The notes: generated by a model from the sequence alone, not told the origin. Counted from the first letter of the stretch, positions 1,829 through 22,753 are shown. The stretch: DNA of 24,000 bases from Companilactobacillus sp. HBUAS59544 (GCF_036913635.1 NZ_JAYKTZ010000003.1); one strand, 5' to 3'. Numbers and translations are program-made.

Positions 1829-1858
1829 CAGTCAACTACAACTTGGCTGCTATTTTTT
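1829..1858 (+). terminator. Weak candidate intrinsic terminator for the AKR gene, embedded in the 3' end of convergent ribH
   Basis: CAGTCAA (1829-1835) pairs with TTGGCTG (1843-1849) for 7 bp including one G-U, with a 7-nt loop, followed by CTATTTTTT. Only 15 bp separate the two convergent stop codons. Confidence 0.3.
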
Positions 1859-2306
1859 CGGCATTGATCACTTCAACTACGTCACTGGCACATTCACTAC
1901 CTTTATTTCCAGCTTTTCCACCAGCTCGATTGAGTGCTTGATCCATATTATCAGTCGTCAAAATCCCATACATTACTGGGATTCTACCGGTCAGTGTTTG
2001 TTGACTCACACCAGTGGCTGACTGAGCACAGACATAATCAAAGTGAGCTGTTTCACCTCTGACTACTGCCCCTAAGGCAATCACACCGTCAATATTTTGG
2101 TTCTCGGAAATAATTTTTGTCATACGAGGGATTTCAAAAGCCCCTGGCACTTTAATTACTGTGATATCCGAATCAGCCACCTGCAGTTGTTTTAATTTTT
2201 CCAAAGCTCCTTGTAGCAATTTATTAGTCACAAGCTCATTAAACTTAGCAACAACTATCGCAATTTTTAAATTTGTTCCATTTAAATTTCCGTTAATTTC
2301 GTTCAT
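1836..2306 (-). CDS. ribH: 6,7-dimethyl-8-ribityllumazine synthase (156 aa)
   Basis: Typical lumazine synthase sequence (IAIVVAKFNELVTNKLLQGA, VPGAFEIP, ALGAVVRGETAHFDYV). Last gene of the rib operon. GAGGTAG RBS. Confidence 0.95.
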   Translation of the reverse strand: MNEINGNLNGTNLKIAIVVAKFNELVTNKLLQGALEKLKQLQVADSDITVIKVPGAFEIPRMTKIISENQNIDGVIALGAVVRGETAHFDYVCAQSATGVSQQTLTGRIPVMYGILTTDNMDQALNRAGGKAGNKGSECASDVVEVINAEKIAAKL

Positions 2307-2307
2307 G

Positions 2308-3504
2308 TTAATCTACCTCGTTTAGTAAATGATGAAATTTTTTCTTTTTAGTTTCTAAATAATGACGATCGTTATTATTTGGCTTAGTTTCCAAGGGTAC
2401 TCGTTTAACGCTGACGCCCAATTTTTGTAACTGGCTGATTTTGTCAGGATTATTAGTCATTAAAGCTACCGAATCAATTTGAAAGTATTTCAAAATTGAC
2501 ATTACAACGTCATAATTTCTAGCATCTGCTGGTAAGCCTAATTTCTCATTGGCTTCAACCGTATCATAGCCGGAATCTTGTAACTGATAAGCTCGCAATT
2601 TATTGATCAATCCGATACCCCGACCTTCTTGATGCAAGTAAATCAAAGCACCGTTACCATTAGCTTCAATTTTCCTTAAAGCTGTCTCTAATTGTTCCCC
2701 ACAATCGCAACGCTTGGAACCTAAAATATCACCGGTGAAGCATTCTGAATGAACTCGTAAGAGTAAGTTTGATTTTTTCAGATCACCTTTATAAATGACC
2801 AACAATGGTTGATTTTGATAAGTGAACGAGTGCAGGCGAAAATGTCCAAATTTAGTTGGTAAATCAACATCGGAATCTGACTTCAAAACTTGAAAGTTAG
2901 TTAAGTAACGATATTGAATAATGTCAGCAATCGTAATCATCGTCATGTGGTTCTCGGTCGCAATCTCCTTTAGTTGTTTACGACGTGCCATCTGACCATT
3001 GTCTCGAATAACTTCACAAATGTAAGCTACCGGTGTGGCTTGGGCAATCTTAGCCAAATCAATGGCTGCTTCAGTATGTCCATCACGAACAATTACGCCG
3101 CCATCTTTAGCAATCAATGGGAAAATATGCCCTGGATGATAAAAATCATTTGGTTCGTTTGAGGTTGCTAAAGCTTTAATCGTCTTAGCACGGTCAAAAG
3201 CTGAGATACCAGTCGTTGTAGTTTTTACGTCAGTACTGATGGTAAAAGCCGTGTTGAAGGCATCATGTGAACTTGCCATCAGTGATAGATCCAACTTTTG
3301 AGCAATTTCTGAACTCATCGGAACGCATAACAATCCGCGAGCATGATTGATCATAAAGTTGACCTTTTCTCCATTTACAAAGTCGGCTAAACCAATCATA
3401 TCCCCCTCAGCTTCACGATCAGTTGAATCTGCTACAATGATCAATTTACCTTGTTTTAAATCCGCTACCGCTTGTTCAACTCGCTTAATTACTCCATTAG
3501 TCAT
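2308..3504 (-). CDS. ribBA: Bifunctional 3,4-dihydroxy-2-butanone-4-phosphate synthase / GTP cyclohydrolase II (398 aa)
   Basis: N-terminal DHBP synthase motifs (DREAEGD, GHTEAAIDL) and C-terminal GTP cyclohydrolase II motifs (RVHSECFTGDILGSKRCDCGEQL, YLHQEGRGIGLINK). The start ATG overlaps the end of the ribE reading frame (ATGACTAA). Confidence 0.95.
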   Translation of the reverse strand: MTNGVIKRVEQAVADLKQGKLIIVADSTDREAEGDMIGLADFVNGEKVNFMINHARGLLCVPMSSEIAQKLDLSLMASSHDAFNTAFTISTDVKTTTTGISAFDRAKTIKALATSNEPNDFYHPGHIFPLIAKDGGVIVRDGHTEAAIDLAKIAQATPVAYICEVIRDNGQMARRKQLKEIATENHMTMITIADIIQYRYLTNFQVLKSDSDVDLPTKFGHFRLHSFTYQNQPLLVIYKGDLKKSNLLLRVHSECFTGDILGSKRCDCGEQLETALRKIEANGNGALIYLHQEGRGIGLINKLRAYQLQDSGYDTVEANEKLGLPADARNYDVVMSILKYFQIDSVALMTNNPDKISQLQKLGVSVKRVPLETKPNNNDRHYLETKKKKFHHLLNEVD

Positions 3505-4090
3505 TTTGACTCCCCCTCAAATTGCGATACACATATTTTCCTAAAATATCTGTTTCTAAATTAACTACGTCACCAAGCTTTAAAGCTCCTAAAACTGTCT
3601 TTTCTTATGTAAAGGGAATGATTCCAACTTGAAATTGATCCTTTTGGACACTAATAATCGTTAAACTAACTCCGTCAATTGTGATTGATCCTTTTTCAAC
3701 TAAATAAGGTGAATACTTAGGGTCAATTGAAAAAATTAAAAGATCCGAATTTCTAGCTCTTTTTTTAGCCAGTAATTGTCCAGTTGTATCAACGTGTCCT
3801 AAAACAAAATGTCCTCCGATTTTAGAATTTAGTTGCAATGCTGGTTCCAAGTTCACTTCCTGTTGCAGTTGAAAATCATTGATATTAGTTTTTTTGACTG
3901 TTTCTGGCATCACATCGACTTGAAAACGTGCTTTTTCAATTTGCGTGACTGTCAAACAGATGCCATCGATAGCAATGCTATCGCCAAGTTCAAGTTGTCC
4001 TAGGTGATGTGAGATGACCAACGATAAATTATCGCGTGATTGCTTGATCTGTTGGACCTTCCCAATACCTTTCACAATTCCTGTAAACAT
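3497..4090 (-). pseudogene. ribE: Riboflavin synthase alpha chain interrupted by a single in-frame TAA at 3605-3607 (161 aa made; 35 further homologous codons remain in frame)
   Basis: The ORF MFTGIVKGIGKV...GIIPFT stops at TAA 3607-3605. Reading on in the same frame gives EKTVLGALKLGDVVNLETDILGKYVYRNLRGSQND, ending at TAA 3499-3497. This is the expected riboflavin synthase C-terminus and the expected overlap with the ribBA ATG. Checked codon by codon. Confidence 0.8.
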
Positions 4091-5103
4091 TATTCAAGCC
4101 TCCAAGTCGTAATCTTTAAATTATCAGCTAACGTTAAAATTTCTGGTTGAGCAAATTTCAATTTAGCTACGGGTCCATTGATCGCTGGTAATCCCTGGCC
4201 AAAAATTTTATTTGCTAAGTAAATGACCAGTCGATCACACAATTTTTCATTGAGAAAATCTGCCTGCAGGTGGGTACCGCCTTCAACTAATATCGATTGG
4301 ATTCCTAAATGACCTAGTTTTTGGATAATTTTAAGTGGTGTCCAATCATCTACAAAAACTTGAACATTTTTCGGTAATGTTCGACTGGATTTTTTTTGAC
4401 TAAAAAAATAAATCGGTTCACTGGTTTGAAAAATCCGCCTTTTCAAATCAACGCTGTTCACGTCCCGAATGACAACTGCACGAATAGGTGGAAATTTTTC
4501 TTTTTTACGAACAGTCAATTTAGGATCGTCTATTTTAAATGTATTTTCACCAACTAAAATCACTTGCGATTCTCGGCGTAATTCTTGACTATCTTTGAAA
4601 ACCTCTTGATTGGTGATCATTGAACGTGTTCCCTTAGTTTGATTGACTTTTCCATCCAGAGTCATGGCATATTTTATTGTTACTAGCGGTCGGTTGTTTT
4701 GATGAAAAAATTTATAAGCAAGGCTCAAATCATTTTTTTGATGCAAATTTTCAACCTGAACTCCATGACTTTCTAAATACTTAATCCCATTACCGCTGAC
4801 TATGGGATTAGGGTCGGTTTCGGCAATAACTACTTTCTTAATGCCTACTTCAACAATTTTTTGCACACATGGTGGTGTTTTGCCAAAATGTGAACAAGGC
4901 TCTAAAGTTACGTATAAAGTTGCCCCATAAGCTTCAGAAATATCCGGCAAATGTTGTAAAGCATTTATCTCAGCATGATTCTGGCCATAAGTTTCATGGT
5001 ACCCAGAACTTAAAATTTGCTGATTTTTTACAATTACGGCCCCAACTTGGGGATTTTTCCATGTATCTTTACCCTTTCTCGCTTCTGTAAAAGCTAATTT
5101 CAT
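4090..5103 (-). CDS. ribD: Bifunctional diaminohydroxyphosphoribosylaminopyrimidine deaminase / 5-amino-6-(5-phosphoribosylamino)uracil reductase (337 aa)
   Basis: Deaminase motifs HAEINAL and LEPCSHFGKTPPC, plus a C-terminal reductase domain. Start moved to ATG 5103 (MKLAFTEARKG), because the 34-codon extension in the ORF track runs through the riboswitch terminator. Confidence 0.9.
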   Translation of the reverse strand: MKLAFTEARKGKDTWKNPQVGAVIVKNQQILSSGYHETYGQNHAEINALQHLPDISEAYGATLYVTLEPCSHFGKTPPCVQKIVEVGIKKVVIAETDPNPIVSGNGIKYLESHGVQVENLHQKNDLSLAYKFFHQNNRPLVTIKYAMTLDGKVNQTKGTRSMITNQEVFKDSQELRRESQVILVGENTFKIDDPKLTVRKKEKFPPIRAVVIRDVNSVDLKRRIFQTSEPIYFFSQKKSSRTLPKNVQVFVDDWTPLKIIQKLGHLGIQSILVEGGTHLQADFLNEKLCDRLVIYLANKIFGQGLPAINGPVAKLKFAQPEILTLADNLKITTWRLE

Positions 5104-5130
5104 AAATCTATCCAAAATCCTATTCACCCC

Positions 5131-5163
5131 ACAAAAAAAGCCCCGCAAAAATTTTGCGGGACT
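5131..5163 (-). terminator. Intrinsic terminator forming the expression platform of the FMN riboswitch
   Basis: Minus strand reads GTCCCGCAAAATTTTTGCGGGGCTTTTTTTGTGG: a GC-rich stem (5141-5160) followed by a T-run, about 30 nt upstream of the ribD ATG. Confidence 0.85.
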
Positions 5164-5235
5164 TTTAAGATAAGCTAAATAAGACTCCATACGAGACGAT
5201 GCCAAATAGGCTTATCAATAGCATGAAATTTTATT

Positions 5236-5370
5236 TTCTTCTACCATCCAGACTATACTGTCGGCTCTGGCTTAATACCAGATCCACCACTCTCGTGGGT
5301 CACGGGCTCCAACTTCAAAGAAGCTGCTACCGTCGGTCGGGAATTACACCCTGCCCCGAAGAAATCTATA
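5236..5370 (-). promoter_or_regulatory. FMN riboswitch (RFN element) aptamer
   Basis: Minus strand carries the conserved RFN blocks: TCTTCGGGGCAGGGTGTAATTCCCGACCGACGGTAGC, GAGCCCGTGACCC, GGTATTAAGCCAGAGCCGACAGTATAGTCTGGATGGTAGAAGAA. It sits between a promoter and ribD. Confidence 0.9.
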
Positions 5371-8515: not shown

Positions 8516-9328
8516 TTACAAAGCAAACTTCTCAATTGCTAAGCCAACACCATCATGATTGTTATCAGCCGTCACAAAATCACAAACTTCTTTAGCACCT
8601 TTAGTAGCGTTGTCCATCGCTACACCCATGCCAGCAAGCTTTATCATAGAAATATCATTATCCCGATCACCCATGGCAATTACTTGCTTCATATCAATAT
8701 TCAATGAATCAGCCAAATGTTTGACCGCAACTCCTTTATTGACGTGCTGTGGAAAAATTTCTAGAAAACCAACACCTGTCCTAACTACAAAATAGTCTTG
8801 ATCAAAATGGTCATGAACCATTTGTGAGATTGAATCTAATTTCTTTTCATCACCATTGATGATGGCTTTGACGATTTCAAAATCTTCAGGCAGTTCATCT
8901 GGTTCACGAATCAACAAACCATTATCATTTTCAAAAGCTTGCGTAATAGTATATTTATCAATATTTTCAAAATGACTAGTATATGTCCGCCCTTCTGGAT
9001 CGACAACGTTATAGTTCAAACGGTTTCTTTGTGCAAAGTCAACAAATTCACGATAAAATTGATTACTCAAAGTTTGTTGGTAAATGATTTTTCCAACCAT
9101 ATTTTCAATGATTCCGCCACCATTGGTAATCATATATTGCTCAGAGCCACTGATCCCCAGATTTTTGGCATAATCCGTTATAGCGTTATGAGTTCTACCT
9201 GAACACAAGACAACTTTAATTCCTTTAGCTAAAGCTCTTTTGATTGCGGAAGCGTTTTTTGCTGAAACCGTCTTCTCAGAAGTTAGTAGAGTATCATCCA
9301 TATCTAGTGCTATTAATTTATAATCCAT
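8516..9328 (-). CDS. Cof-type HAD-IIB phosphatase (270 aa)
   Basis: HAD motifs LDMDDTLL (motif I), CSGR (II), K...GDRDNDISM (III/IV), and a Cof-type cap. The start ATG overlaps the upstream stop by 1 nt (TAATG). Confidence 0.85.
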   Translation of the reverse strand: MDYKLIALDMDDTLLTSEKTVSAKNASAIKRALAKGIKVVLCSGRTHNAITDYAKNLGISGSEQYMITNGGGIIENMVGKIIYQQTLSNQFYREFVDFAQRNRLNYNVVDPEGRTYTSHFENIDKYTITQAFENDNGLLIREPDELPEDFEIVKAIINGDEKKLDSISQMVHDHFDQDYFVVRTGVGFLEIFPQHVNKGVAVKHLADSLNIDMKQVIAMGDRDNDISMIKLAGMGVAMDNATKGAKEVCDFVTADNNHDGVGLAIEKFAL

Positions 9329-10098
9329 TACTTATCCTCACTCAAAGCATATTTTGTTATTGCCACTCCAACACCGCTATGATTATTATCGAGCGTTATG
9401 TCGTCAGCAAAATTTTTAATTCTTTGTGGTGAATTAGCCATTGCTACACCCACGCCAGCTAATTTCAACATCGGCACATCATTATCCAAATCCCCGATAG
9501 CTAATACTTGTTTCATATTTATTTTTAATCGTTTGGCTAATTTTTGTAAGGCTAAACCTTTGTTAACCTCCTTGGGAAAAAGTTCAATATCACGAGGACT
9601 GGTTATTACAATAAAGAACTTTTGATCAAATTTTTGATGCAAACTTGCTGCTAATGAATTTAACTTATGTTTTCTTGTATGCATTAAAAACTTGACAATA
9701 CCTAGTTCTGGATCAAGCATCCTTTTTTCCATCCATTCTTGATACGAATCATAAATATTTCCTTTGGTATCAATCAAAATATGCGCAATTTTATCATCGG
9801 TTAGTTGCTCAGCTATTTCTTGACAAGTGGTATTTTCTAGAACTTTTCGATAATGAATTTTTTTATCTAGACTTTCAATGACATTACCACCAAACTCAAT
9901 AATATATTGGTCACTGCCTGAAATTCCTAATTCATGGCAACTGTCAATTATGCCATCATATGAACGCCCTGAATTCAAAACAACTTTAATTCCTTGATCC
10001 AAAGCCTTTTTTATCGCCGCTTTATTATCAGCCGAAATCTTTTTCTTATCATCCAAAAGAGTGCCATCCATATCAATAGCAATCATTTTTATGTCCAT
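9328..10098 (-). CDS. Cof-type HAD-IIB phosphatase, paralog (256 aa)
   Basis: IDMDGTLL, NSGR, GDLDNDVPML. AAGGAG RBS 7 nt before ATG 10098. By eye about 40% identical to the downstream paralog. Confidence 0.85.
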   Translation of the reverse strand: MDIKMIAIDMDGTLLDDKKKISADNKAAIKKALDQGIKVVLNSGRSYDGIIDSCHELGISGSDQYIIEFGGNVIESLDKKIHYRKVLENTTCQEIAEQLTDDKIAHILIDTKGNIYDSYQEWMEKRMLDPELGIVKFLMHTRKHKLNSLAASLHQKFDQKFFIVITSPRDIELFPKEVNKGLALQKLAKRLKINMKQVLAIGDLDNDVPMLKLAGVGVAMANSPQRIKNFADDITLDNNHSGVGVAITKYALSEDK

Positions 10099-10144
10099 AA
10101 TGCTCTCCTTTGCTTTACTTTTACTTTAATTGTAATCCTTTACA

Positions 10145-10184
10145 TAAAAAAGTGGCTGAATCTAATAAATTCAACCACTTTTTC
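10145..10184 (-). terminator. Intrinsic terminator ending the seven-gene operon
   Basis: Minus strand: AAAAAGTGGTTGAAT-loop-ATTCAGCCACTTTTTT, a stem of about 14 bp with one mismatch, running into a T-tract. It starts 5 nt after the M42 stop codon. Confidence 0.8.
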
Positions 10185-10188
10185 CATA

Positions 10189-11283
10189 TCATTCTATTCC
10201 TGCAGATTTCTTTAGCTTATCTACTGTTGACCAATCAGCGCGACGACAAAATTCTGTTATTAATTTTATAGTTTGTTCATAATCTCGTTTATGAACCATC
10301 AATCTTGGCGAATGCATATAACGTGTCGGCATTGAAATAGTCATTGTTAAAACACCTTCCAGCATTTTATGAATATTACATGCATCAGTTCCACCGACCG
10401 TCATAAAATCATATCTTACGTCCAAATTCAAATCAGACACTATATTTTCCATTGTTTGAAGTAAACCATTATTTGCCATAGTTAATGAATCCAACACAGA
10501 CAGGATCACTCCTCCGCCAAGTTTCATCCCCTCACTATCAATTGGAGTATCCGTTGCAGTAGTAACATCCATAGCAATTGCAATATCGGGTTTAATGGTA
10601 TGAACTGCTGTTCTAGCACCTCGTATACCTACCTCTTCTTGGACAGTTGCGGCATGGTAAACATTAGCATAATGGCTCTCCATAGAAAGATTTCTCATCA
10701 CTTCCAATGCGGCCCCGACGCTTAAACGATCATCAAATGCTTTTCCCATTAAATAATTAGGATCATTCATTTGTCTAAATTTGACATTTGGCGTAATCAT
10801 ATCTCCAATTTGAATGCCTAAATGTTCTGCATATTTTCTCGAAGGAACACCAATATCTAGAAACAAATCTTTTGGTGCAATCACTTTGTTCTTAATACTA
10901 TCTGGCAAACCATGTGGTGCCCTTGATCCAACCACTCCAATAATTTTTTTATTATCCTCAGTGGTAATCGTCATTTCTTGTGCTGGCATAACATGTCCCC
11001 ACCAGCCTCCAACAGGAAGCAATTTTATATACCCATCATCGGTAATGCTTCTAACCATAAATCCAACTTCGTCCATATGACTAGACAACATAATTGTTGG
11101 TCCTTTTTTATCGCCATAGGACTTCAAAATAGTTGATCCCAAGTTATCATATTCTATTTCATCAGAATACTTTTCACCAAATGAGGTTACTACTCTGCTA
11201 ACTTCCCTTTCTCTTCCACCAATTCCATCAGCTTCAGATAGATCTTTTAACAAATTCAAATCTACTTCATTAAATTTAACCAT
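10189..11283 (-). CDS. M42-family metallo-aminopeptidase (PepA/FrvX/YsdC-like), full metal-ligand set (364 aa from ATG 11283; alternative GTG 11295)
   Basis: SSHMDEVGF, GKAFDDRLSVG, TVQEEVGIRGA, IAMDVTTA and TRYMHSP give the complete His / Asp / Glu-Glu / Asp / His pattern of M42 (clan MH). Confidence 0.85.
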   Translation of the reverse strand: MVKFNEVDLNLLKDLSEADGIGGREREVSRVVTSFGEKYSDEIEYDNLGSTILKSYGDKKGPTIMLSSHMDEVGFMVRSITDDGYIKLLPVGGWWGHVMPAQEMTITTEDNKKIIGVVGSRAPHGLPDSIKNKVIAPKDLFLDIGVPSRKYAEHLGIQIGDMITPNVKFRQMNDPNYLMGKAFDDRLSVGAALEVMRNLSMESHYANVYHAATVQEEVGIRGARTAVHTIKPDIAIAMDVTTATDTPIDSEGMKLGGGVILSVLDSLTMANNGLLQTMENIVSDLNLDVRYDFMTVGGTDACNIHKMLEGVLTMTISMPTRYMHSPRLMVHKRDYEQTIKLITEFCRRADWSTVDKLKKSAGIE

Positions 11284-11295
11284 CTTAACTGACAC

Positions 11296-12357
11296 CTACC
11301 TATTCTCTTCTTTAAATGATTGAATCTTGTCTATATTCAATTCTCCAACAAATTCTAAAAGCGCTTCTTTGGCAGATGAAAAATCATTTAAATCAAGAAC
11401 AGAGTTAGGGGTATTCATGTTTCTAATAGGAACATTTATAAACAGTGTTGGACATCCAGTTCTTAGCTTATTAATCCAGGCCGCATCTGACCCTTCCATT
11501 GAGTAATAAAATTGGAAAGGAATCTTCTTACTCCGACACAATTTTTTAAGCTCAGAAATTAGTAATCGATTTGGCAAAACCGTTTTATCATAAAAATTAA
11601 CTAATAAGCCTTTTCCTAAACAACCAATTCTATCATCAACTTTTTCTTGATAATCAAAGGCCTGGTCAGTGTCCAATACAATTCCCAAATCTGGTTTAAC
11701 CAAATTCGTGGTCGTTTGAATACCTCGTAATCCAACTTGCTCCTGGACAGTACATCCGACAAATAAATCGAAATCAAATGATTCATTTTGCACTTCTTTT
11801 AGAAATTCAATTTCCATCAGAGGAGCATATCTTCCATTCCAGTTACTAGTAAATATTTTATTCGAATTCTCATTTTTATTTAAAACTGGAAGAAAAGAAA
11901 CTCTATCACCTAATTTAATATCACTTTTTTCCAACTCACTTAAATTACTAAATCCAAAATCAATGAGGACATCTCCCTTAGAATCTAATGCATCCCCTTC
12001 AACATTAAATCCTAAAATAGTACCGTGCAGATTCTGAGAAGGTAGTAAAACTGCAGTTCCCAATAAACAATTTTTATTAATTTCACCTAAGGAAAGTGCC
12101 TTTACTGTTCCGTTCTCATTGAATTTTTTAATAATAAAACCAACTTCATCCATATGACCAGAAATTAAAACATGTGGAGCGTCTTTTCGCTTACTCTTTT
12201 TTACCGCATAAATTGACCCTAAATTATCATATATTATTTCATCAGAATATTTTTCAAATTCATTTCTAAGCACTTGTGAAATAGCTTTTTCATTTCCAGA
12301 AACTCCCGGTGCGTTGATAACCTTATTTAACAATGTTGTATCTACCGTTGAATTCAT
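11296..12357 (-). CDS. M42-family paralog with substituted metal ligands (probable pseudo-peptidase or repurposed subunit, 353 aa)
   Basis: SGHMDEVGF is retained. The aligned motifs read SNWNGRYAP (for AFDDR), TVQEQVGLRG (for QEEVG), VLDTDQA (Asp retained) and IRNMNTP (for YMHSP). GAGGAG RBS 7 nt before ATG 12357. Confidence 0.8.
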   Translation of the reverse strand: MNSTVDTTLLNKVINAPGVSGNEKAISQVLRNEFEKYSDEIIYDNLGSIYAVKKSKRKDAPHVLISGHMDEVGFIIKKFNENGTVKALSLGEINKNCLLGTAVLLPSQNLHGTILGFNVEGDALDSKGDVLIDFGFSNLSELEKSDIKLGDRVSFLPVLNKNENSNKIFTSNWNGRYAPLMEIEFLKEVQNESFDFDLFVGCTVQEQVGLRGIQTTTNLVKPDLGIVLDTDQAFDYQEKVDDRIGCLGKGLLVNFYDKTVLPNRLLISELKKLCRSKKIPFQFYYSMEGSDAAWINKLRTGCPTLFINVPIRNMNTPNSVLDLNDFSSAKEALLEFVGELNIDKIQSFKEENR

Positions 12358-12368
12358 CACTAATCTCC

Positions 12369-12890
12369 TCAGTAACAGATTTCTTTCTTCAAGTCAGAGT
12401 AATCTTCTTTTTGTACCTTTCTCTTTGCTAAATCAATAATGTTCTTTAGAGAAGCAGTTAATCCTGTACCCCCTTTTTTAGGCATTTTAACTATATCAAT
12501 TTTATCTTTATACTCGGAAATTGCCTCCGTACATTCCACAGACATTGCTGCAACTACAGGAATATGAACTTTTTGTTCAATCTTAAGACCTACTTCTCCA
12601 CACATTTTTCCAAATTTTTCATAATTAAATGCTGGGCCACAAATGACAACATCAGGTTGCAATTTTCTAACCATAGCTGCCATTTTTTTTGATACAATTT
12701 CATGATTTTCCAAGAAATAATCGTCACCACTATATAAAGTTGCAATTATTTCCGAATTATCCTCTTTTAATAGTGAATCAAACATGTTAGTAGATCCAAT
12801 TCCAAGTTTTTTTCCACCTAGTTCAACGTTTCCGTTTTCTTTACCACCTAATCCAGCTTGAATTTGGTCAAAAATAAAAATAATTTTCAT
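12369..12890 (-). CDS. Stand-alone protein resembling the N-terminal half of glycine/sarcosine/betaine reductase component B (GrdB family), no selenocysteine region (173 aa)
   Basis: MKIIFIFDQIQAGLGGKENG...GDDYFLENHEIVSKKMAAMVRKLQPDVVICGPAFNYEKFGKMCGEVG parallels, from memory, the GrdB N-terminus (VVHYINQFFAGIGGEEKA...GDSYYNEN...PDLFIAGPAFNAGRYGVACG). Start at ATG 12890 with a GAGGTGA RBS. Confidence 0.65.
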   Translation of the reverse strand: MKIIFIFDQIQAGLGGKENGNVELGGKKLGIGSTNMFDSLLKEDNSEIIATLYSGDDYFLENHEIVSKKMAAMVRKLQPDVVICGPAFNYEKFGKMCGEVGLKIEQKVHIPVVAAMSVECTEAISEYKDKIDIVKMPKKGGTGLTASLKNIIDLAKRKVQKEDYSDLKKEICY

Positions 12891-12903
12891 AGCGCTCACC
12901 TCT

Positions 12904-14244
12904 CTATAAATCATCTAACGAAAGATCATCAAACGATAAATCATCTGTTTCTTTTGATTTTTTAGCTTCAGCTTCCTCTTTCAAATATTGCTTATCCAAC
13001 GTTTTTATAAATGGATAGTAAACTAAACATCCTAAAGCCAATAGAACAAACTGCCATAATGATGCTATTAAACTACCCGTAGATAAGTAGCCTGAAAATC
13101 CTATCGGAGTAGTCCACGGCAAGGCTACGCCATTTGTATAAGGAATTAATCCAATTTTCGTAACAATAGTTGACAAGATTAAATTCATTGTAGGTACTAA
13201 TATGAATGGAATAATAATAATAGGATTTAGAACAATCGGAAGTCCAAAAATAATTGGTTCATTAATACCAAAAATTCCGGGTACTAATGACAAGTTAGCT
13301 AACTTTTTAATTCTTTCAGATTTACAGAAAAATATCATAATAATAATCAAGGATAAAGTACTTCCCCCACCACCAAAATTCGTGAAGAAGTTTGAGAATG
13401 GATCGGTAAAAATGTTGGGCAAAGTTTTCCCTGCTTGAAATGCATCCAAATTCTCCATTGTTAAAACTCTTGTAATTGGTCCAAAAACTGAATTTGCAAC
13501 TGCCGGACCATTAATTCCAAAGAACCAGAAAATTGTACATGCTAAGGAATAAACAATCTGAGCAGTTAACGTATTACCGACACCCTTTAATGGTGTTTGT
13601 AAAATTTCAAAAATAAAATTATGGAATGTTTGGAATGTTGTAAATTCAAAACCAATTCTAATAAAGAAGAAAATAACCATAACGATTCCACTTGGTACCA
13701 AAGCAGCAAACGATTGAGTGACTGCTGGTGGAACACCATCAGGCATCTTAATGGTCCATCCCTTTTTAGTTGCATATGCATAAACTTGAACAGAAAGCAA
13801 TGCAACTACTAAACCTAAAAATATTCCGTTAGTACCAAGATATTGCATGTCAATAGCACTCAATGGATCTTTCAATCCTTTTGCCGTTATTTGTAAAGGT
13901 GTCAAAATCAAATACCCAATAATTGCAACAGCTGCCCCTTGAATTGCATCAACCTTCAATTGTCTCCCATAGGCATAAGCAGTACCCATACATGATAAGA
14001 AACCAATCATGTCAAAAACTGCTCCTGAAACGTTTGTAAACCATGATGACCAATTGTCACCTAAAATATTATTCCAGAATCCTTCCCAACCTGGAATCGG
14101 AAAATTCGAAAATAGTAAGAAAAATGAACCAACAATAATTAATGGGGTAGTGATTAAAAAACCATCTCTGATGGCAACTAAAATCTTATTTCTGCCTAGC
14201 TTTTCCGCCACTGGCATTAAGCCGCTTTCTAACTTATTAAACAT
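12904..14244 (-). CDS. PTS EIIC permease, lactose/cellobiose/chitobiose (Lac/Chb) family (446 aa), with an acidic repeat tail
   Basis: N-terminus MPVAEKLGRNKILVAIRDGFLITTPLIIVGSFFLL is typical of CelB/ChbC-type EIIC. About 10 TM segments and a GINEPIIFGLPIVLNP motif. C-terminal tail ...ETDDLSFDDLSLDDL. No EIIA/EIIB gene in the window. Confidence 0.85.
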   Translation of the reverse strand: MFNKLESGLMPVAEKLGRNKILVAIRDGFLITTPLIIVGSFFLLFSNFPIPGWEGFWNNILGDNWSSWFTNVSGAVFDMIGFLSCMGTAYAYGRQLKVDAIQGAAVAIIGYLILTPLQITAKGLKDPLSAIDMQYLGTNGIFLGLVVALLSVQVYAYATKKGWTIKMPDGVPPAVTQSFAALVPSGIVMVIFFFIRIGFEFTTFQTFHNFIFEILQTPLKGVGNTLTAQIVYSLACTIFWFFGINGPAVANSVFGPITRVLTMENLDAFQAGKTLPNIFTDPFSNFFTNFGGGGSTLSLIIIMIFFCKSERIKKLANLSLVPGIFGINEPIIFGLPIVLNPIIIIPFILVPTMNLILSTIVTKIGLIPYTNGVALPWTTPIGFSGYLSTGSLIASLWQFVLLALGCLVYYPFIKTLDKQYLKEEAEAKKSKETDDLSFDDLSLDDL

Positions 14245-14289
14245 GGCATTTCACCTCTTAATTAATTTATTTATCTCTATAAAAACTCC

Positions 14290-15594
14290 TTAACACAATT
14301 CATTTTTTAAACAATCGTAATAAATTTCCATCATCATTTGCCAATCCTTCACATTTAGCCATTCATCACCTTTATGTGCAATCCCTTTTTGCCCAGGAAA
14401 TGATGGTCCAAATGCCACTATGTTTGGCATGCTACGTGCATACGTTGCTCCGGTAGTAGTAACTGGCTTCCCGTTTAAACCAGTATCATTTTCATAAATC
14501 TTAGAAAAATTTTTAATAAAATCCTGATTTGTACTTTTGACAACTGAAGGAATATTTCTATTAATCTCAACTGTCATATTTGATAAAAATTCCGTTGCTA
14601 GTTGTTTTAATATCTGCTCAGAATTTATTGACACTGGGTAACGCATAGAAAAGCTCAAATTCAACGAATCAGTTTTCTTTTCAATTTTATAAAAAGATAA
14701 TTGTAATTTTCCTGAATTATCATCTTCAAAATTAATCCCCAAATTTTTACCATCGGTCTGATCTGAGAATTTATCATCTATCCATCTAAACGTTTCTCCG
14801 ATTTGTCCATTCAATGAGCTAGCTTTATTAACTAACATAGGTAATACATTCTTGGCCATATCAGGAGCATTACTTGGTGATTTCTCCCCTTTAAAATTAG
14901 TTGTTATTCCGTCAATCGTTATCGATGCCGTATCTGGAATAAAACTTTTATCAAATACTCCATCGATTTTCTCAATTCTTTCTAGAGAATCATCGGTTAT
15001 TAAACAATTTATGGTTAAATCTAGCAATCCCCGCTCACCATAAACAATAGGAAATTTACAATCTGGAGTAAATCCGGCATATGGTGGTATTTCTTCATTC
15101 AAATATAATGGAATATCATTACTACCGGATTCTTCATCTGTTCCAAAAATTATTCTGATTCTCTTTTTCAGGGGTATATTTTGTTCTTTTATTAGATATA
15201 GAGCAAAAACTGTAGAAATAAATGGACCTTTATTATCTAAAACCCCTCTTCCAAAAAATCTCTTTTTTGAAATACTTAAATCAAATGGCGGATAATTCCA
15301 ATCATCTACTACATCCACTACATCTAAATGTCCTAATACAGCAAAATATTCACTAGTATTGGGCCCGTATTCTAGCCAACCAACACAGTCTGAAGCTTGA
15401 CCAGTTCTAAATCCTAGTTCTTTTGCGAGATTAAGCATATATTCCATCGCTTTTTTGGGTCCAATTCCAAATGGAGCTTGAAAGGTTCTATTCCCTTTTA
15501 CACTAGGAATAGATACTAGTCCTTTAAAATAATCAATGAACTGATTTTCATATTTGGAATACAGTACATTAAAATCACCACGAACATCATTCAA
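14290..15594 (-). CDS. pepV: M20-family dipeptidase, PepV/Sapep-like (434 aa), TTG start
   Basis: GHLDVVDV, GRGVLDNKGP, FGTDEESGS, PIVYGERG and GIAHKGDEW give the complete M20 ligand pattern with a PepV-type lid. TTG 15594 is preceded by an AAAGGAGGG RBS. The track's longer ORF would overlap the GntR gene end. Confidence 0.8.
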   Translation of the reverse strand: MNDVRGDFNVLYSKYENQFIDYFKGLVSIPSVKGNRTFQAPFGIGPKKAMEYMLNLAKELGFRTGQASDCVGWLEYGPNTSEYFAVLGHLDVVDVVDDWNYPPFDLSISKKRFFGRGVLDNKGPFISTVFALYLIKEQNIPLKKRIRIIFGTDEESGSNDIPLYLNEEIPPYAGFTPDCKFPIVYGERGLLDLTINCLITDDSLERIEKIDGVFDKSFIPDTASITIDGITTNFKGEKSPSNAPDMAKNVLPMLVNKASSLNGQIGETFRWIDDKFSDQTDGKNLGINFEDDNSGKLQLSFYKIEKKTDSLNLSFSMRYPVSINSEQILKQLATEFLSNMTVEINRNIPSVVKSTNQDFIKNFSKIYENDTGLNGKPVTTTGATYARSMPNIVAFGPSFPGQKGIAHKGDEWLNVKDWQMMMEIYYDCLKNELC

Positions 15595-15613
15595 GATTAT
15601 TTCCCTCCTTTCT

Positions 15614-16330
15614 TCAATTATGTCGATATAAAATATTATGAAATGTATATTTATCAGCTCGATAAAAAGATTCATCATAAAGAATCGGATAACCATCCGC
15701 AGAATAAGATGTGGTATGTGCTAAAAAACCAGGTGAACCCAATTTTATATTCATTTCATGGCTCAGTTTCTCACTCGATAAAACCGATTCTAATTCTTGA
15801 CTTCCATATGCAATTTTTATTGTTTTTTCAATAATACTAAAGAGTGAACCTGAAGCCATTTCACGATTAAGATTCTTTGCAAACTTCTGCTTTAAATATA
15901 TTTCCTCATGAGTCATAGAGTTATTGCCTATAGACCTTAAGCGGATTATTTTCCAAACTTTTTCTTTATCTAACAGTCTCAGTTGATCTTTTACAGTATC
16001 GGAAACATTTGATGTTTCCAAAAATGATAAAACCTTTGTGTGACTTTCTAGATGCATCTTTTTTGCAACTTCAGAGAAACCCACCAATCCATTGCTACCA
16101 CTGGAAATTCGACTATCTGGTGCTAAAACAAAGGTTCCCCGATTACGATCTTTAACAACTAATTGTCTCTTCTCTAATTCTTCAATCGATTTGCGAATCG
16201 TCAAACGTGAAGTATCAAATTGAAATGATAATTCCGTCTCAGACGGCAACTTTTGATGAACTCCATATTCTCCATCTTTGATGATCTTTTCTAATTTATC
16301 CGCGATCTTGCTGTACAAATATTCTGGCAT
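15614..16330 (-). CDS. GntR-family transcriptional regulator, HutC subfamily (wHTH + UTRA effector domain, 238 aa)
   Basis: N-terminus LYSKIADKLEKIIKDGEYGVHQKLPSETELSFQFDTSRLTIRKSIEELEKRQLV is a canonical GntR wHTH. The C-terminal length and pattern fit UTRA. Confidence 0.85.
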   Translation of the reverse strand: MPEYLYSKIADKLEKIIKDGEYGVHQKLPSETELSFQFDTSRLTIRKSIEELEKRQLVVKDRNRGTFVLAPDSRISSGSNGLVGFSEVAKKMHLESHTKVLSFLETSNVSDTVKDQLRLLDKEKVWKIIRLRSIGNNSMTHEEIYLKQKFAKNLNREMASGSLFSIIEKTIKIAYGSQELESVLSSEKLSHEMNIKLGSPGFLAHTTSYSADGYPILYDESFYRADKYTFHNILYRHN

Positions 16331-16343
16331 AAAAAAATTCCTC

Positions 16344-17297
16344 TTAATCTATTGGTGCTTTAATTCTCTTCTCATATGCATCCATCCACTCTTGTGTGAT
16401 GGGACTGATCTTAGTCTTATCATTTTCATCTGGATAGGCGATATAAACTGCTGGTGCTTCTTTTTCTGTTCCCATGGCAAATGTGAATTCAACATTGGTT
16501 GAAACTCCCCATTGTCCATCCTTACTCAAAGCAATTAAGGAGAACTCTCCAATTTTTCCGAAGCGCTTCTTTAATTTTCTCAAAAATGGATAGAGAGCTT
16601 TATCACAGGCTGCTTGTGGACTCAAACCAGTTCCCATTAAACGAACTATCTCATAGCAAAGACATCCTTTCATAATATCTTCACCTAAACCAGTTGCGGC
16701 AGCTCCTCCAATATCACTGTCAACGTAAAAACCATCACCTACTAAAGCGGAATCGCCAGTTCGACCAGCTTTTTTCATAAATAGTCCTGAAGTCGAAGTT
16801 CCGACTGACATTGAACCTGTTTGATCCAAACTGACCATTCCAACAGTATCATGTCCGTCATATGGTGAAAGATTCTTTTCAGCAATTTCAGCTTTGCGTT
16901 TCTCCCAAATTTTCTTTGCTCTAGGTGTCAACATATTCTTTCTTTCAAAGCCATTTTTAGTCGCATATTGACTGGCACCTTCACCTACCAAAACGCTGTT
17001 GAAATGCTCATGGCTCAAGCTTCTGGCTACTGAGATCGGATTCTTCACATCACTGATACCCATGACTGCACCAACGCCAAAAGTATCACCACTCATAAAG
17101 GCTGAATCTAATTCAACTAACCCATTTTCGTTAGGCAAACCACCGAATCCGACAGATTTAAAGTATGGATAATCCTCCACTTCTTTAATGGCAGATTCTA
17201 CCGCATCGCCGCTAGTACCACCACCTTTCAATAAATCAAGTCCCTTAGAGAGACCTTCATAAGCCATTCTCCAAGTTCCAATCATTGCATAAGTCAT
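16344..17297 (-). CDS. Ntn-hydrolase of the asparaginase-2 family, glycosylasparaginase (aspartylglucosaminidase) type (317 aa), no signal peptide
   Basis: Autoprocessing/nucleophile site GHD-TVGMVSLD (AGA-like HDT(I/V)GM, not IaaA-like G-TVGAV). Also GTSTSG, GRTGDSALVGDGFYVD (substrate Arg/Asp) and ATGLGEDIM. Start at ATG 17297 with an AAGGAG RBS 7 nt upstream. Confidence 0.75.
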   Translation of the reverse strand: MTYAMIGTWRMAYEGLSKGLDLLKGGGTSGDAVESAIKEVEDYPYFKSVGFGGLPNENGLVELDSAFMSGDTFGVGAVMGISDVKNPISVARSLSHEHFNSVLVGEGASQYATKNGFERKNMLTPRAKKIWEKRKAEIAEKNLSPYDGHDTVGMVSLDQTGSMSVGTSTSGLFMKKAGRTGDSALVGDGFYVDSDIGGAAATGLGEDIMKGCLCYEIVRLMGTGLSPQAACDKALYPFLRKLKKRFGKIGEFSLIALSKDGQWGVSTNVEFTFAMGTEKEAPAVYIAYPDENDKTKISPITQEWMDAYEKRIKAPID

Positions 17298-17312
17298 CTG
17301 ATCACTCCTTTT

Positions 17313-17326
17313 TGTAATCGATTTCA
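17313..17326 (-). promoter_or_regulatory. cre box (CcpA/HPr-Ser-P operator), perfect match
   Basis: Minus strand TGAAATCGATTACA matches 14/14 positions of TGWAANCGNTNWCA. It lies at about +1 to +14 of the predicted transcript. Confidence 0.7.
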
Positions 17327-17332
17327 TAATTT

Positions 17333-17361
17333 AGTATAATCACGATTGTATATACAATCAA
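17333..17361 (-). promoter_or_regulatory. Promoter of the glycosylasparaginase-GntR-pepV-EIIC-grdB-like-M42-M42 operon
   Basis: Minus strand: TTGATT (17361-17356), 17 nt, TATACT (17338-17333). The predicted leader is about 29 nt. Confidence 0.6.
17344..17359. promoter_or_regulatory. Perfect 16-bp palindrome GATTGTATATACAATC; candidate operator of the operon-encoded GntR/HutC regulator
   Basis: The sequence is exactly self-complementary. Its core GTATATAC fits the HutC-subfamily consensus GT-N-TA-N-AC. It overlaps the -35 hexamer and spacer of the operon promoter. Confidence 0.55.
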
Positions 17362-17528
17362 GTACAAATTATGCTGAGTTATGTAAATTTAACTTTACAA
17401 TTAGACCTTTTTTTATTTTTTTTAAGATATCTGAAATTTTTTTGCGAAATTTAATTACCTTTTACCTAAAAAAACAGAATACCGTTTCATTGGGATTTGA
17501 AATGGCATACAAAATTATTATCATAGTC

Positions 17529-17563
17529 AAAAAAAGCCCCATTTCCAATTTTTGGAAACGAGG
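17529..17563 (-). terminator. Orphan terminator-like hairpin in the divergent intergenic region, better paired on the minus-strand RNA
   Basis: Minus strand: CCTCGTTTCCAA-AAA-TTGGAAATGGGG (12 bp, two G-U pairs) followed by CTTTTTTT. On the + strand the two G-U pairs become C-A mismatches, although a TTTCTCTTTTTT tract follows. Confidence 0.4.
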
Positions 17564-17580
17564 TTTCTCTTTTTTAAGCC

Positions 17581-17593
17581 AAATACGAACAAT
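17581..17593 (+). promoter_or_regulatory. PurBox-like sequence (possible PurR site) upstream of guaD
   Basis: AAATACGAACAAT matches 12/13 positions of the lactococcal PurBox consensus AWWWCCGAACWWT (recalled from memory). Its spacing to the candidate promoter differs from the lactococcal examples. Confidence 0.25.
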
Positions 17594-17603
17594 TTACTAT
17601 TTA

Positions 17604-17633
17604 TTTACATTATCATTCATGTTAACCTAATAT
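17604..17633 (+). promoter_or_regulatory. Candidate promoter of the guaD-permease operon
   Basis: TTTACA (17604-17609), 18 nt, TAATAT (17628-17633). Confidence 0.4.
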
Positions 17634-20385: not shown

Positions 20386-21513
20386 TCACAACGCCGTAAT
20401 CTGTTTACGCCCATTTCTTTTAGAGTGATAAAGATTGCCATCAACACGCGAATAGAAATCATTTGGCTGAGCATCTTTTTTAGAGATCATCGACACTCCA
20501 ACTGAAATTGTGATATTGATTTTTTGCCCATTAACTTCTACATCAATATGATTTAAAGCGGCAAAAATTTGATGCACGATTGGTTCGGTCGCCTCTAAAT
20601 CATAACCGGGAAAGATGACGTTAAATTCTTCGCCACCTGTTCGATAAAGTTTAACATTCGGGTCATTTTCAGAAATCACAGTTTCAACGACATCAACTAC
20701 ATGTTGCAAAACTTTATCACCGGCCAAGTGACCATAAGTATCATTAACTTGTTTGAAGTGATCAATGTCGAACATCATCATTGAAAGATCAAGTTTGTTG
20801 ACCGTGCTATCGCTAAACAGATGATCCATTTCTGCTTTATAGGCGGCAAAATTTTCCGTCTTCGTTAGAGCATCATGATTAGCAAACTTCAACAGTTTAA
20901 GCTTTAATTGACTGTCACGCAAAATCATCCCTACGTAACTGTAAAGTAAAGCTTCAAAAATAATTAAATATAACCATTCTTGTAAATACGTTGACCATGT
21001 AAAATCAAATTTTAATTTCATGAAGAACCACAAGAGTGCCCCAAAGAACGTTCCCAAAAACATATAATTAATAAAGGAATGTTTTACCGCTTGATTTCGA
21101 CGTAATTGATTCATGCTGAGGTAAAACAACATTAAAGTGAATCCATGACACCATGACTCCCAGTAACCAATTGAGCCATTGAACATCATATATAAAATCA
21201 TAATTGGAAAAAATACCAAAAACGGAACTTTAATATTTAAGAAATAAGCACAAAAGACCAAGGCGATTAATTGAAAATTCATAAACTGCCAAGAAATCGG
21301 TGTCCCGACAAGCGTCGCTTGCATACTGAAGATAAAAATCAACATGTACAAGACTCCGAAGGCTGAATTTAATTTGTCATCATCTACATTTATTTTTTTA
21401 GAATGTAGAAACGTTTTTAAACCGTCATAAAGAACTTGATAAAGTGTGAAGATTCCTAAAATGAAGAAAACACCCGTTATAAAAGGTGAAACGTGCCAAA
21501 TCGACCAAGTCAA
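20386..21513 (-). CDS. Membrane-anchored diguanylate cyclase (multi-TM N-terminal domain + GGDEF, 375 aa), TTG start
   Basis: HDALTKTENF, FDIDHFKQVNDTYGHLAGD and YRTGGEEFNVIFPG. There are 6-7 predicted TM helices. Start moved to TTG 21513 (MTWSIWHVSPF) by analogy with the paralog; both have GGAGG 11 nt upstream. Confidence 0.85.
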   Translation of the reverse strand: MTWSIWHVSPFITGVFFILGIFTLYQVLYDGLKTFLHSKKINVDDDKLNSAFGVLYMLIFIFSMQATLVGTPISWQFMNFQLIALVFCAYFLNIKVPFLVFFPIMILYMMFNGSIGYWESWCHGFTLMLFYLSMNQLRRNQAVKHSFINYMFLGTFFGALLWFFMKLKFDFTWSTYLQEWLYLIIFEALLYSYVGMILRDSQLKLKLLKFANHDALTKTENFAAYKAEMDHLFSDSTVNKLDLSMMMFDIDHFKQVNDTYGHLAGDKVLQHVVDVVETVISENDPNVKLYRTGGEEFNVIFPGYDLEATEPIVHQIFAALNHIDVEVNGQKINITISVGVSMISKKDAQPNDFYSRVDGNLYHSKRNGRKQITAL

Positions 21514-21579
21514 GAATGCGATAACCTCCAACTTTATATTCTTTTTTAAAATTATATTTATATTTTATAATAATAGCAC

Positions 21580-21620
21580 AAAAAAACTCACTACCCTCGA
21601 AAATTCGATGAAGTAGTGAA
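21580..21620 (-). terminator. Intrinsic terminator between the two GGDEF genes
   Basis: Minus strand: TTCACTAC...TCGAATTTTCGA...GTAGTGAG followed by TTTTTTT, directly after the stop of the upstream paralog. Confidence 0.6.
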
Positions 21621-21625
21621 ATTTT

Positions 21626-22753
21626 TTAAATAGCCGTAATCTGCATCCGACCATTGTTTTTCGATTGATAAAGATTCTCATCCACCCGACCATACAAATC
21701 GTTAGGATGAAGATCATCTTCAGAAATCTCGGAAACACCGACCGAAATCGAAATGGTAATTTCATTTCCATTGTATTCTACTGGCAAGTGATTAACTGCC
21801 GAAAAAATCTCCTGCACAATCATTTTTGTTGAATCAAGATCATAACCTGGAAAAACAATATTGAATTCCTCCCCACCAGTCCGATAAAACTTGACCGAAG
21901 GATCGTTCTCATTGATTACTGTTGATACAACGTCCGCTACCTGCTGTAAAACCTTGTCTCCTGCCAAATGCCCATAAGTATCATTAACCTGCTTAAAATG
22001 GTCAATATCAAACATCATCATCGACAGATGTAACTTATTATGACGACTATTACTGAAAACGTATTTCATCTCGGAATCATAAGCTGCGTAATTAGAAATT
22101 TTGGTTAAGGCATCATGATTAGCAAATTCGACTAGCCGTAATTTTAATTTGCTATCACGCAAAATCATATTGACGTAACTATAAAGTAAGATTTCAAAAA
22201 TCATCATATATGACCACTCTTCTAGCGTTATCCTGAAACTTAAATCAAATTTCAAGGCGACAAATGTCCACAATAAAATTCCAGAAACTATGCCAGTTAT
22301 AAGATAGTCAATAAATTGATGTTTTTCATTTTGAATACGATGAATCCGATTAAAAGTATCATATGTCACAATAACAGTCCAAGCATGACACCATGATTCC
22401 CAATAACCAAATGAACCATTGATCGTCATATATACCAAAACAATTGGAATAAAATAACGCAGTGGTACTTTGATATTTAAAAAGTAAGCACAAAAAACTA
22501 ATGCAATGATTTGAAAATTCATAAATTGCCAGGAAATTGCTTTACCCGACAAAGAAGCTTGCATACTAAAAATAAAGATCAACATGTAAAAAATACCGAA
22601 AACCGAGTTCAAATGATCTTCGTCAATTTTAAACTTTTTTAAGTTAAAAAATGATTTCAACCAATCATATAAAACTTCATACAAAGTGAATACACCCAGA
22701 ATAAAGAAAATACTGGTAATAAACGGTGATACGTGCCATACATGCCATGTCAA
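21626..22753 (-). CDS. Membrane-anchored diguanylate cyclase, tandem paralog (375 aa), TTG start
   Basis: Same architecture and length as 20386-21513. YRTGGEEFNIVFPG and FDIDHFKQVNDTYGHLAGD. By eye roughly two-thirds amino-acid identity along the whole length. Confidence 0.85.
   Translation of the reverse strand: MTWHVWHVSPFITSIFFILGVFTLYEVLYDWLKSFFNLKKFKIDEDHLNSVFGIFYMLIFIFSMQASLSGKAISWQFMNFQIIALVFCAYFLNIKVPLRYFIPIVLVYMTINGSFGYWESWCHAWTVIVTYDTFNRIHRIQNEKHQFIDYLITGIVSGILLWTFVALKFDLSFRITLEEWSYMMIFEILLYSYVNMILRDSKLKLRLVEFANHDALTKISNYAAYDSEMKYVFSNSRHNKLHLSMMMFDIDHFKQVNDTYGHLAGDKVLQQVADVVSTVINENDPSVKFYRTGGEEFNIVFPGYDLDSTKMIVQEIFSAVNHLPVEYNGNEITISISVGVSEISEDDLHPNDLYGRVDENLYQSKNNGRMQITAI

Follow-up and report, generated by a model that had tools for sequence, protein, structure and literature searches.

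The window analysed here, a 24,000-nucleotide stretch of the genome of Companilactobacillus sp. HBUAS59544 (GCF_036913635.1, NZ_JAYKTZ010000003.1), contains a seven-gene minus-strand operon that combines a glycosylasparaginase, a GntR/HutC regulator and several peptidases with the EIIC component of a sugar phosphotransferase system (PTS), and that is related to the enterococcal glycosylasparaginase locus, ega. Gene order and sequence throughout the window are nearly identical to those of Companilactobacillus suantsaicola BCRC 81127 (locus L001; 90-100% amino-acid identity). The operon and its putative control elements are as follows, read in the direction of transcription.

17345-17358, unstranded: perfect 14-bp palindrome ATTGTATATACAAT, unique in the window; putative operator of the GntR/HutC (EgaR/AlfR2-type) repressor
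17333-17361, minus: promoter-like site, a consensus match in the scan, with -35 TTGATT (17361-17356), 17-nt spacer and -10 TATACT (17338-17333)
17313-17326, unstranded: perfect catabolite-responsive element (cre; CcpA) site TGAAATCGATTACA, zero mismatches, between the -10 box and the ribosome-binding site (RBS)
16344-17297, minus: cytoplasmic glycosylasparaginase, an AsnA2/EgaG-type N-terminal nucleophile (Ntn) hydrolase of 317 aa (PF01112 Asparaginase_2, E 2e-64)
15614-16330, minus: GntR/HutC regulator (GntR and UTRA domains) of the EgaR/AlfR2 orthologue group (NF041547 'GntR_LSA1692', 321 bits, cut-off 275)
14290-15594, minus: Sapep/PepV-type M20 dipeptidase of 434 aa, the EgaP/PepV counterpart (TIGR01887, 353 bits)
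12904-14244, minus: PTS EIIC of the lactose/cellobiose (Lac/Cel) family, type A clade (TIGR00410, 408 bits, cut-off 236)
12369-12890, minus: GrdB N-terminal-domain-like protein of 173 aa, no selenocysteine (NF041545 'GrdB_like_no_Se', 253 bits, cut-off 175)
11296-12357, minus: M42b, an M42 paralog with degenerate metal ligands, a putative pseudo-peptidase (PF05343, E 6e-52)
10189-11295, minus: M42a, an intact YsdC-like M42 aminopeptidase, start at GTG 11295 or ATG 11283 (PF05343, E 7e-91)
10146-10184, minus: intrinsic terminator, an 18-bp stem followed by a U-run (dG -22.3 kcal/mol, z -6.3)

The seven open reading frames (ORFs) span 10189-17327 in the ORF list, and profile searches against Pfam and NCBIfam confirmed the family calls that an earlier reading of the sequence alone (the sequence-only reading) had made for all seven genes. 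Its description of seven tightly packed genes between one promoter and one terminator is likewise upheld by the ORFs, by gaps of 0-45 nt and by the terminal hairpin, which none of 200 shuffled sequences (0/200) folded equally well to match. Two of the listed starts lie too far upstream and are spurious: translation of the Ntn gene begins at ATG 17297 (RBS AAAGGAG) rather than at 17327, and that of the M20 gene at TTG 15594 (RBS AAAGGAGG) rather than at 15696. The annotated N-terminal extension of the Ntn protein, 'MKSITKRSDQ', is almost certainly untranslated leader; the listed ATG at 17327 falls inside the cre site (window 17313-17327). With the starts corrected, every gene is preceded by an RBS of its own, and the intergenic gaps are 13, 19, 45, 13, about 11 and 0-12 nt from the Ntn gene onward.

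Sites resembling TTGATT-17-TATACT are no more frequent in the region than in shuffled sequence, and by itself the predicted promoter is therefore weak evidence, although it gains weight because a conserved operator and a cre site flank it. The palindrome overlaps the -35 box and the spacer. The Ntn genes of L. sakei and of five other Companilactobacillus species are preceded, at a distance of about 60 nt, by an identical 14-mer, ATTGTATATACAAT, and those of Enterococcus and Vagococcus by a GTATATAC core. The regulators of L. rhamnosus alf-2, of the Enterococcus loci, of L. sakei and of the window all match the same NCBIfam equivalog, NF041547. A cre-like site at about -29 also recurs across related loci, and the genes of the L. 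sakei cluster were expressed at modestly higher levels on ribose than on glucose (PMC3146418). Taken together, the operator, the cre sites and the L. sakei expression support a single predicted transcription unit that would be controlled by its repressor and subject to catabolite repression.

Two further elements lie just outside the operon. A cre-like site with one mismatch, TGTAAAGGATTACA, occupies 10131-10144, directly past the terminator and upstream of the first of two phosphatase genes. The intergenic region between the divergent genes holds an orphan terminator-like hairpin with a U-run (17537-17563, minus strand, dG -19.3 kcal/mol, z -5.0), located some 180 nt ahead of the operon promoter and not preceded by any minus-strand gene; it had no match in Rfam.

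Products of the seven genes

The Ntn protein scored best, among solved structures, against the Elizabethkingia glycosylasparaginase (184 bits, versus 127 bits for isoaspartyl peptidases), and it contains the autoprocessing site HDT151VG. It is 66% identical to the AsnA2 orthologue of L. rhamnosus alf-2, 74% identical to L. sakei AsnA2, and 66-69% identical to Enterococcus enzymes whose NCBI name is N(4)-(beta-N-acetylglucosaminyl)-L-asparaginase. Against the NCBIfam beta-aspartyl-peptidase model NF007589 it reached 112 bits, far below the cut-off of 567, and it stands farther from the EcAIII/ASRGL1 branch of isoaspartyl peptidases and plant-type asparaginases than from the glycosylasparaginases. 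Judged by these comparisons, the hydrolase belongs on the glycosylasparaginase branch and not on the isoaspartyl branch. It is taken to be cytoplasmic because its sequence begins at the mature domain and leaves no space for a signal peptide.

The M20 dipeptidase retains intact metal ligands, with the motifs GHLDVV, LDNKG, TDEES, TPDCKF and AHKGDE all present; its best structural matches are Sapep (3KI9/3KHX) and PepV (1LFW), and its orthologues from related loci match the same model. The two M42 proteins form an unequal pair. M42a, whose closest solved relative is B. subtilis YsdC (PDB 1VHE, 315 bits), carries the full catalytic and metal set of His, Asp, Glu-Glu, Asp and His (7/7 residues), a set retained in 38/38 sequences compared. 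In M42b of the window the ligands have changed (D188N, D189G, E221Q and H328N, in M42a numbering), and the same positions are degenerate in nearly all of the 40 orthologues examined, while the ORF is still intact and conserved. M42b is thus predicted to be catalytically inactive, and the two proteins may assemble into a TET-like hetero-oligomer in which M42b is the pseudo-enzyme subunit. Both the cytoplasmic AGA-type glycosylasparaginase and the combination of one intact with one ligand-degenerate M42 protein had been proposed in the sequence-only reading, and the structural scores, the processing site, the start of the Ntn protein and the residue comparison bear them out.

Like the TET aminopeptidases, M42a retains the complete TET-type catalytic set, and the presence of an M42 aminopeptidase gene within a PTS operon is analogous to the situation of frvX, sgcX and ypdE in E. 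coli. In contrast to both groups, the window carries an obligate pair, one member of which is conserved in a ligand-degenerate state.

The GrdB-like protein aligns to positions 2-168 of the 347 positions of PF07355 alone, that is, to the N-terminal half. It is no GrdB itself: the full length of about 430 aa and the selenocysteine-bearing C-terminal half are missing, and it scored 68-95 bits against GrdB/F/H models whose cut-offs are 602-800. Rather, it belongs to a distinct family of proteins of about 173 aa, represented by 636 cluster representatives out of 1.84 billion; no fusion of the domain to EIIC was found among the best 150 of these 636. The AlphaFold2 model (predicted local distance difference test score, pLDDT, 96) has a flavodoxin-like alpha/beta fold, in which the invariant residues lie in loops after beta-strands; two of these loops are Gly-rich, DQxQAGxGG after beta-1 and PKKGGxG after beta-6. 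No solved homologue was found.

In the window the GrdB-like gene follows the EIIC gene by 13 nt, and across loci the distance matrices of the two proteins correlate (r about 0.75-0.78). In E. faecalis OG1RF the GrdB-like gene is a split pseudogene, while the accounts of that locus still describe it as a GlcNAc-Asn (N-acetylglucosaminyl-asparagine) system (PMC11976118, PMC11549559); the protein is therefore probably an accessory component, presumably a cytoplasmic one that serves EIIC. A role as a substitute EIIB was considered and rejected, as the loci of C. difficile, C. disporicum and Enterococcus carry EIIB (and EIIA) besides the GrdB-like gene; with EIIB and the GrdB-like protein side by side in the C. 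difficile locus, the latter is an extra component and not a replacement. A possible parallel is offered by the DUF3284 proteins ChbD and CelI, which are likewise small cytoplasmic proteins encoded beside a Lac/Cel-type EIIC and which influence PTS-dependent growth (PMC12791066, PMC11976118). Although their fold and family are unrelated to those of the GrdB-like protein, they offer, by analogy, a precedent in which a small protein aids a Lac/Cel-type PTS transporter.

Known relatives and distribution of the operon

The sequence-only reading had called this system undescribed, and in this it was wrong. The ega locus of E. faecalis was published in 2023 (Combret et al., Res Microbiol 2024;175:104169, as cited in PMC11549559 and PMC11976118), and at NCBI the regulator and the GrdB-like protein already have models of their own and the hydrolase a name. 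As summarized in those two citing papers, ega comprises a GntR regulator and a dipeptidase (OG1RF_10933 and 10934), EgaG, EIIB, EIIC and the GrdB-like pseudogene, and its PTS for GlcNAc-L-Asn employs the general EIIA CelA1 (PMC11549559, PMC11976118). The functional guess of the sequence-only reading, uptake of GlcNAc-Asn through the PTS, was essentially right, then, and on the evidence of these summaries has been demonstrated for the homologous E. faecalis locus.

The window shares with ega the GntR regulator, the M20 dipeptidase, the glycosylasparaginase, a Lac/Cel-type EIIC with the GrdB-like gene directly after it, and an EIIA that would act in trans, as is described for ega and its substrate GlcNAc-L-Asn. 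It is nonetheless a compositional variant of the known ega/asnA2 system: it has no in-locus EIIB (EgaB), its GrdB-like gene is intact where that of OG1RF is described as split, it adds the M42a/M42b pair, and its EIIC is of type A (see below). In addition, the window forms one predicted transcription unit with the gene order G-R-P-C-D-M42b-M42a, whereas two promoters have been reported for the E. faecalis locus. The EIIC clade of the window may also differ from that of the characterised EgaC. The E. faecalis genes are reportedly organized as egaRP / egaGBCD1D2, an arrangement with which the OG1RF locus tags are consistent.

A second relative is the alf-2 cluster of Lacticaseibacillus casei BL23, which serves 6'-fucosyl-GlcNAc-Asn and contains alfH, alfC, asdA, alfR2, pepV, asnA2 and sugK, and whose AsnA2 is active on GlcNAc-Asn (Becerra et al. 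2020; PMC6960285). The sequence-only reading had described this cluster correctly, as the same paper verifies, except that it left out asdA. It had also recognized the GntR, PepV and glycosylasparaginase genes of the window as the alf-2 core, and this proved sound: the AlfR2-type regulator falls in the same NCBIfam equivalog, the M20 dipeptidase is of the PepV type, and the AsnA2-type enzyme is in both cases cytoplasmic and self-processing. Unlike alf-2, the window lacks the major facilitator superfamily (MFS) permease AlfH, the fucosidase AlfC, the ROK kinase SugK and AsdA; uptake would here proceed through the PTS, and hence the sugar would arrive phosphorylated. The L. rhamnosus locus (L084), by comparison, is a textbook alf-2 cluster, with fucosidase and MFS genes beside GntR-M20-Ntn-ROK, so that AlfH, AlfC and SugK are all present.

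A further relative is the asnA2 cluster of L. sakei (LSA1689-LSA1693 region, locus L081), where all seven families are encoded on one strand and where asnA2 is preceded by the operator 14-mer in identical form and by a cre-like site. The L. sakei M20 gene, however, comes last whereas that of the window is third, and protein identities are 49-74%. Becerra et al. had already depicted alf-2-related clusters in their Figure 7, the legend of which includes PTS genes, and among these are asnA2-pepV-alfR2-PTS clusters of L. sakei and L. curvatus; asnA2 of L. sakei is induced in meat, and an asnA2 mutant grows less well on meat (PMC6960285).

A profile search with the GrdB-like protein as marker returned 323 loci among GTDB species representatives, that is, 323 species genomes, and the best 80 of these were analysed. 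The EIIC gene lies directly upstream of the GrdB-like gene in 66 of the 80 loci, with a median gap of about 17 nt; in 6/80 it lies upstream within 2.6 kb, in 5/80 directly downstream, and in the remaining 3/80 the GrdB-like gene sits at a contig edge and is uninformative. EIIC is thus linked in 77/77 informative loci, and as a partner the GrdB-like protein is a signature of this EIIC family. An Ntn gene occurs in 65 of the 80 loci. When all ORFs within 8 kb were clustered without supervision at 81 loci, the counts were EIIC in 80/81, M20 in 68/81, Ntn in 63/81, EIIB in 59/81, M42 (as pairs) in 41/81, EIIA in 36/81, an RDD-family membrane protein in 36/81, a PRD regulator in 31/81, CutC in 30/81 and GntR in 19/81. 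Neither the CutC-family gene (e.g., L066, 12667-13341) nor the RDD-family gene occurs in the window.

The gene set recurs in Lactobacillales, Clostridia and Erysipelotrichales, and the system is thus widespread in Firmicutes. All seven families are also found in L. sakei and in several Enterococcus species, and Enterococcus sp. AZ128 has the same seven genes plus EIIB. In C. difficile the order is PRD regulator, EIIA, EIIB, EIIC, GrdB-like, Ntn, M20 and CutC. In C. disporicum, aspartase-like and fumarase genes adjoin the locus (L083); the fumarase subunit genes and the aspartase-like Lyase_1 gene lie at 14360-17627, between the type A module and the Ntn gene, a setting that fits aspartate as a product of the pathway. 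Recurrence of the set in other genomes vindicates the view of the sequence-only reading that these genes constitute one conserved neighbourhood.

A neighbour-joining tree of the EIIC proteins reveals that the system comes in two modular forms, each represented by 40 of the 80 loci. Type A is a single clade in which every EIIC gene, its product 58-100% identical to that of the window, is followed by GrdB-like, M42b and M42a genes. Type B comprises the remaining EIIC clades, which are M42-less and in which the Ntn gene usually comes directly after the GrdB-like gene. The M42 pair is accordingly confined to a single, monophyletic clade of EIIC. In 28/40 type A loci an Ntn gene lies within 10 kb, and one was found in 37/40 type B loci. 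Both forms occur in tandem in four loci (L011, L026, L029 and L035); in the first of these, from a Lactobacillales metagenome-assembled genome, EIIC, GrdB-like, M42b and M42a genes are succeeded by a second EIIC, a second GrdB-like gene and Ntn (8654-15773). A stand-alone type A module (L041) consists of a PucR-like regulator, EIIB, EIIC, GrdB-like, M42b and M42a.

The EIIC of the window nests among those of Enterococcus, to which it is 79-81% identical. In five sister Companilactobacillus species (L053, L054, L055, L061 and L063) this chromosomal site, flanked by the guanine deaminase and HAD genes, has a different arrangement, namely Ntn, GntR, GrdB-like, EIIC and M20 without M42, in which the GrdB-like gene precedes an EIIC gene whose product is only 54-57% identical to that of the window. 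Given this divergence from sister species, together with the affinity to Enterococcus, the module has been exchanged, or replaced, within the genus; no anomaly in GC content indicative of horizontal transfer was evident.

Downstream of the operon lie two Cof-type HAD phosphatase genes, dhaKLM, a C26 peptidase gene and a rib operon with a flavin mononucleotide (FMN) riboswitch. The tandem phosphatase genes, of the HAD-IIB type (8516-10098), likewise follow the M42-less loci of four sister species (L053, L055, L061 and L063; absent in the fifth, L054), and are not found downstream of the Enterococcus or L. sakei loci. The riboswitch (RF00050, 110 bits, 5232-5367, minus strand) precedes ribD-ribE-ribBA-ribH (1836-5205). 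The divergent upstream flank encodes a guanine deaminase and a xanthine/uracil permease, and a search upstream of the deaminase gene for a purine riboswitch gave no Rfam match even at a permissive threshold. Beyond these genes, two GGDEF-domain paralogs, each about 375-380 aa long, lie in tandem (20386-22753, minus strand).

Proposed function and competing explanations

GlcNAc-Asn is the universal stub that remains once N-glycoproteins have been deglycosylated and proteolysed. It is likely that the operon of the window is an ega-type system for this core remnant of N-glycoproteins, GlcNAc-beta-Asn, and probably for short Asn-glycopeptides as well. Under this proposal, the Lac/Cel EIIC would import the glyco-amino acid and phosphorylate GlcNAc at C6, with EIIA and EIIB partners supplied from elsewhere in the genome. 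The M42a/M42b complex, working from the N-terminal side, and the M20 dipeptidase would leave the glyco-asparagine with its alpha-amino and alpha-carboxyl groups free, whereupon the Ntn glycosylasparaginase would cleave it to aspartate and 6-P-GlcNAc-amine, the latter decaying to GlcNAc-6-P and ammonia. The GntR/HutC repressor encoded in the operon would bind the promoter-overlapping palindrome, and CcpA the cre site just downstream of it.

The role assigned to the peptidases derives from enzymology, for glycosylasparaginases require free alpha-amino and alpha-carboxyl groups on the asparagine (PMC6960285). Because of this requirement, an aminopeptidase and a dipeptidase would be needed to turn Asn-glycopeptides into the free glyco-amino acid, and we infer that the M42 and M20 enzymes do such trimming. 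For the type A EIIC of the window, GlcNAc-Asn is likewise a putative substrate.

Several observations weigh against this proposal. No Lac/Cel EIIA or EIIB genes (PF02255/PF02302) are present in the 24-kb window, so that transport must rely on trans-acting PTS components from outside it; the E. canis, E. gallinarum and L. sakei loci likewise have no EIIB. PepV is dispensable in L. casei (PMC6960285). No Ntn gene was found in 12 of the 40 type A loci, four of which are full 20-kb loci (e.g., L041), and the cargo of the type A module might thus not need an asparaginase. Finally, E. faecalis is not among the best 80 loci and is absent from the top 120 matches of EIIC and of the Ntn protein, all of them at least 66% identical, and the proven E. 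faecalis transporter may belong to another EIIC clade.

It is tempting to suggest, though only tentatively, that the type A module (EIIC, GrdB-like, M42b and M42a) is a PTS that imports short Asn-linked glycopeptides and not just the free glyco-amino acid. The active/pseudo TET-type M42 complex would then trim the phosphorylated glycopeptide, and the GrdB-like protein would be a new obligatory cytoplasmic partner of the EIIC family that possibly binds the phosphorylated product via its two Gly-rich loops.

A different account, possible and yet doubtful, holds that the type A module is a separate transport and processing unit for some other sugar-amino-acid or sugar-peptide conjugate and has merely been recruited beside the asparaginase core in this lineage; longer N-glycopeptide stubs, or another beta-glycosylated or glycated peptide, are conceivable cargoes. 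Restriction of the M42 pair to one EIIC clade speaks for such a unit, as do the modules that stand alone without an Ntn gene (L041, L028, L048 and L058), the tandem loci in which both forms coexist, and the M42-less module at the same site in sister species whose EIICs resemble that of the window less than the Enterococcus proteins do. Its independence is harder to reconcile with the Ntn gene within 10 kb of most type A modules and with the Lactobacillales genes, which all lie in one operon under the promoter and operator of the Ntn gene; nor did the clustering of 8-kb neighbourhoods reveal an alternative glycosidase that is consistently linked.

It is highly improbable that EIIC is an ordinary cellobiose/chitobiose transporter with unrelated peptidase genes packed beside it by chance. 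The protein does come near the cellobiose model (TIGR00359, 408 bits, cut-off 434), and GH4 and YdjC genes lie near some loci; the window, however, has no phospho-beta-glucosidase, the gene set recurs in three Firmicutes lineages, and the genes are framed by a common promoter, operator and terminator. Least credible of all is the catabolism of beta-aspartyl (isoaspartyl) peptides by an Ntn isoaspartyl peptidase with an incidental PTS gene, for although Pfam Asparaginase_2 covers isoaspartyl peptidases and a weak NCBIfam beta-aspartyl-peptidase match exists, that match falls far short of its cut-off, glycosylasparaginases in the PDB score far better, identity to AsnA2-type enzymes is 66-74%, and the most conserved neighbour is a sugar-type EIIC.

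With the ega-type reading preferred, homology to a known system allows confident annotation of the operon of the window. Use of GlcNAc-Asn is tied to the virulence of E. faecalis and to the growth of L. sakei on meat. Should the type A module indeed be a glycopeptide PTS, a rationale would be at hand for the pairing of M42 genes with PTS operons that is seen in frvX, sgcX and ypdE. The three conserved components, the GrdB-like protein, the pseudo-M42 and the active M42, offer a route to two questions: whether a PTS can carry glycopeptides, and why M42 peptidases reside in PTS operons.

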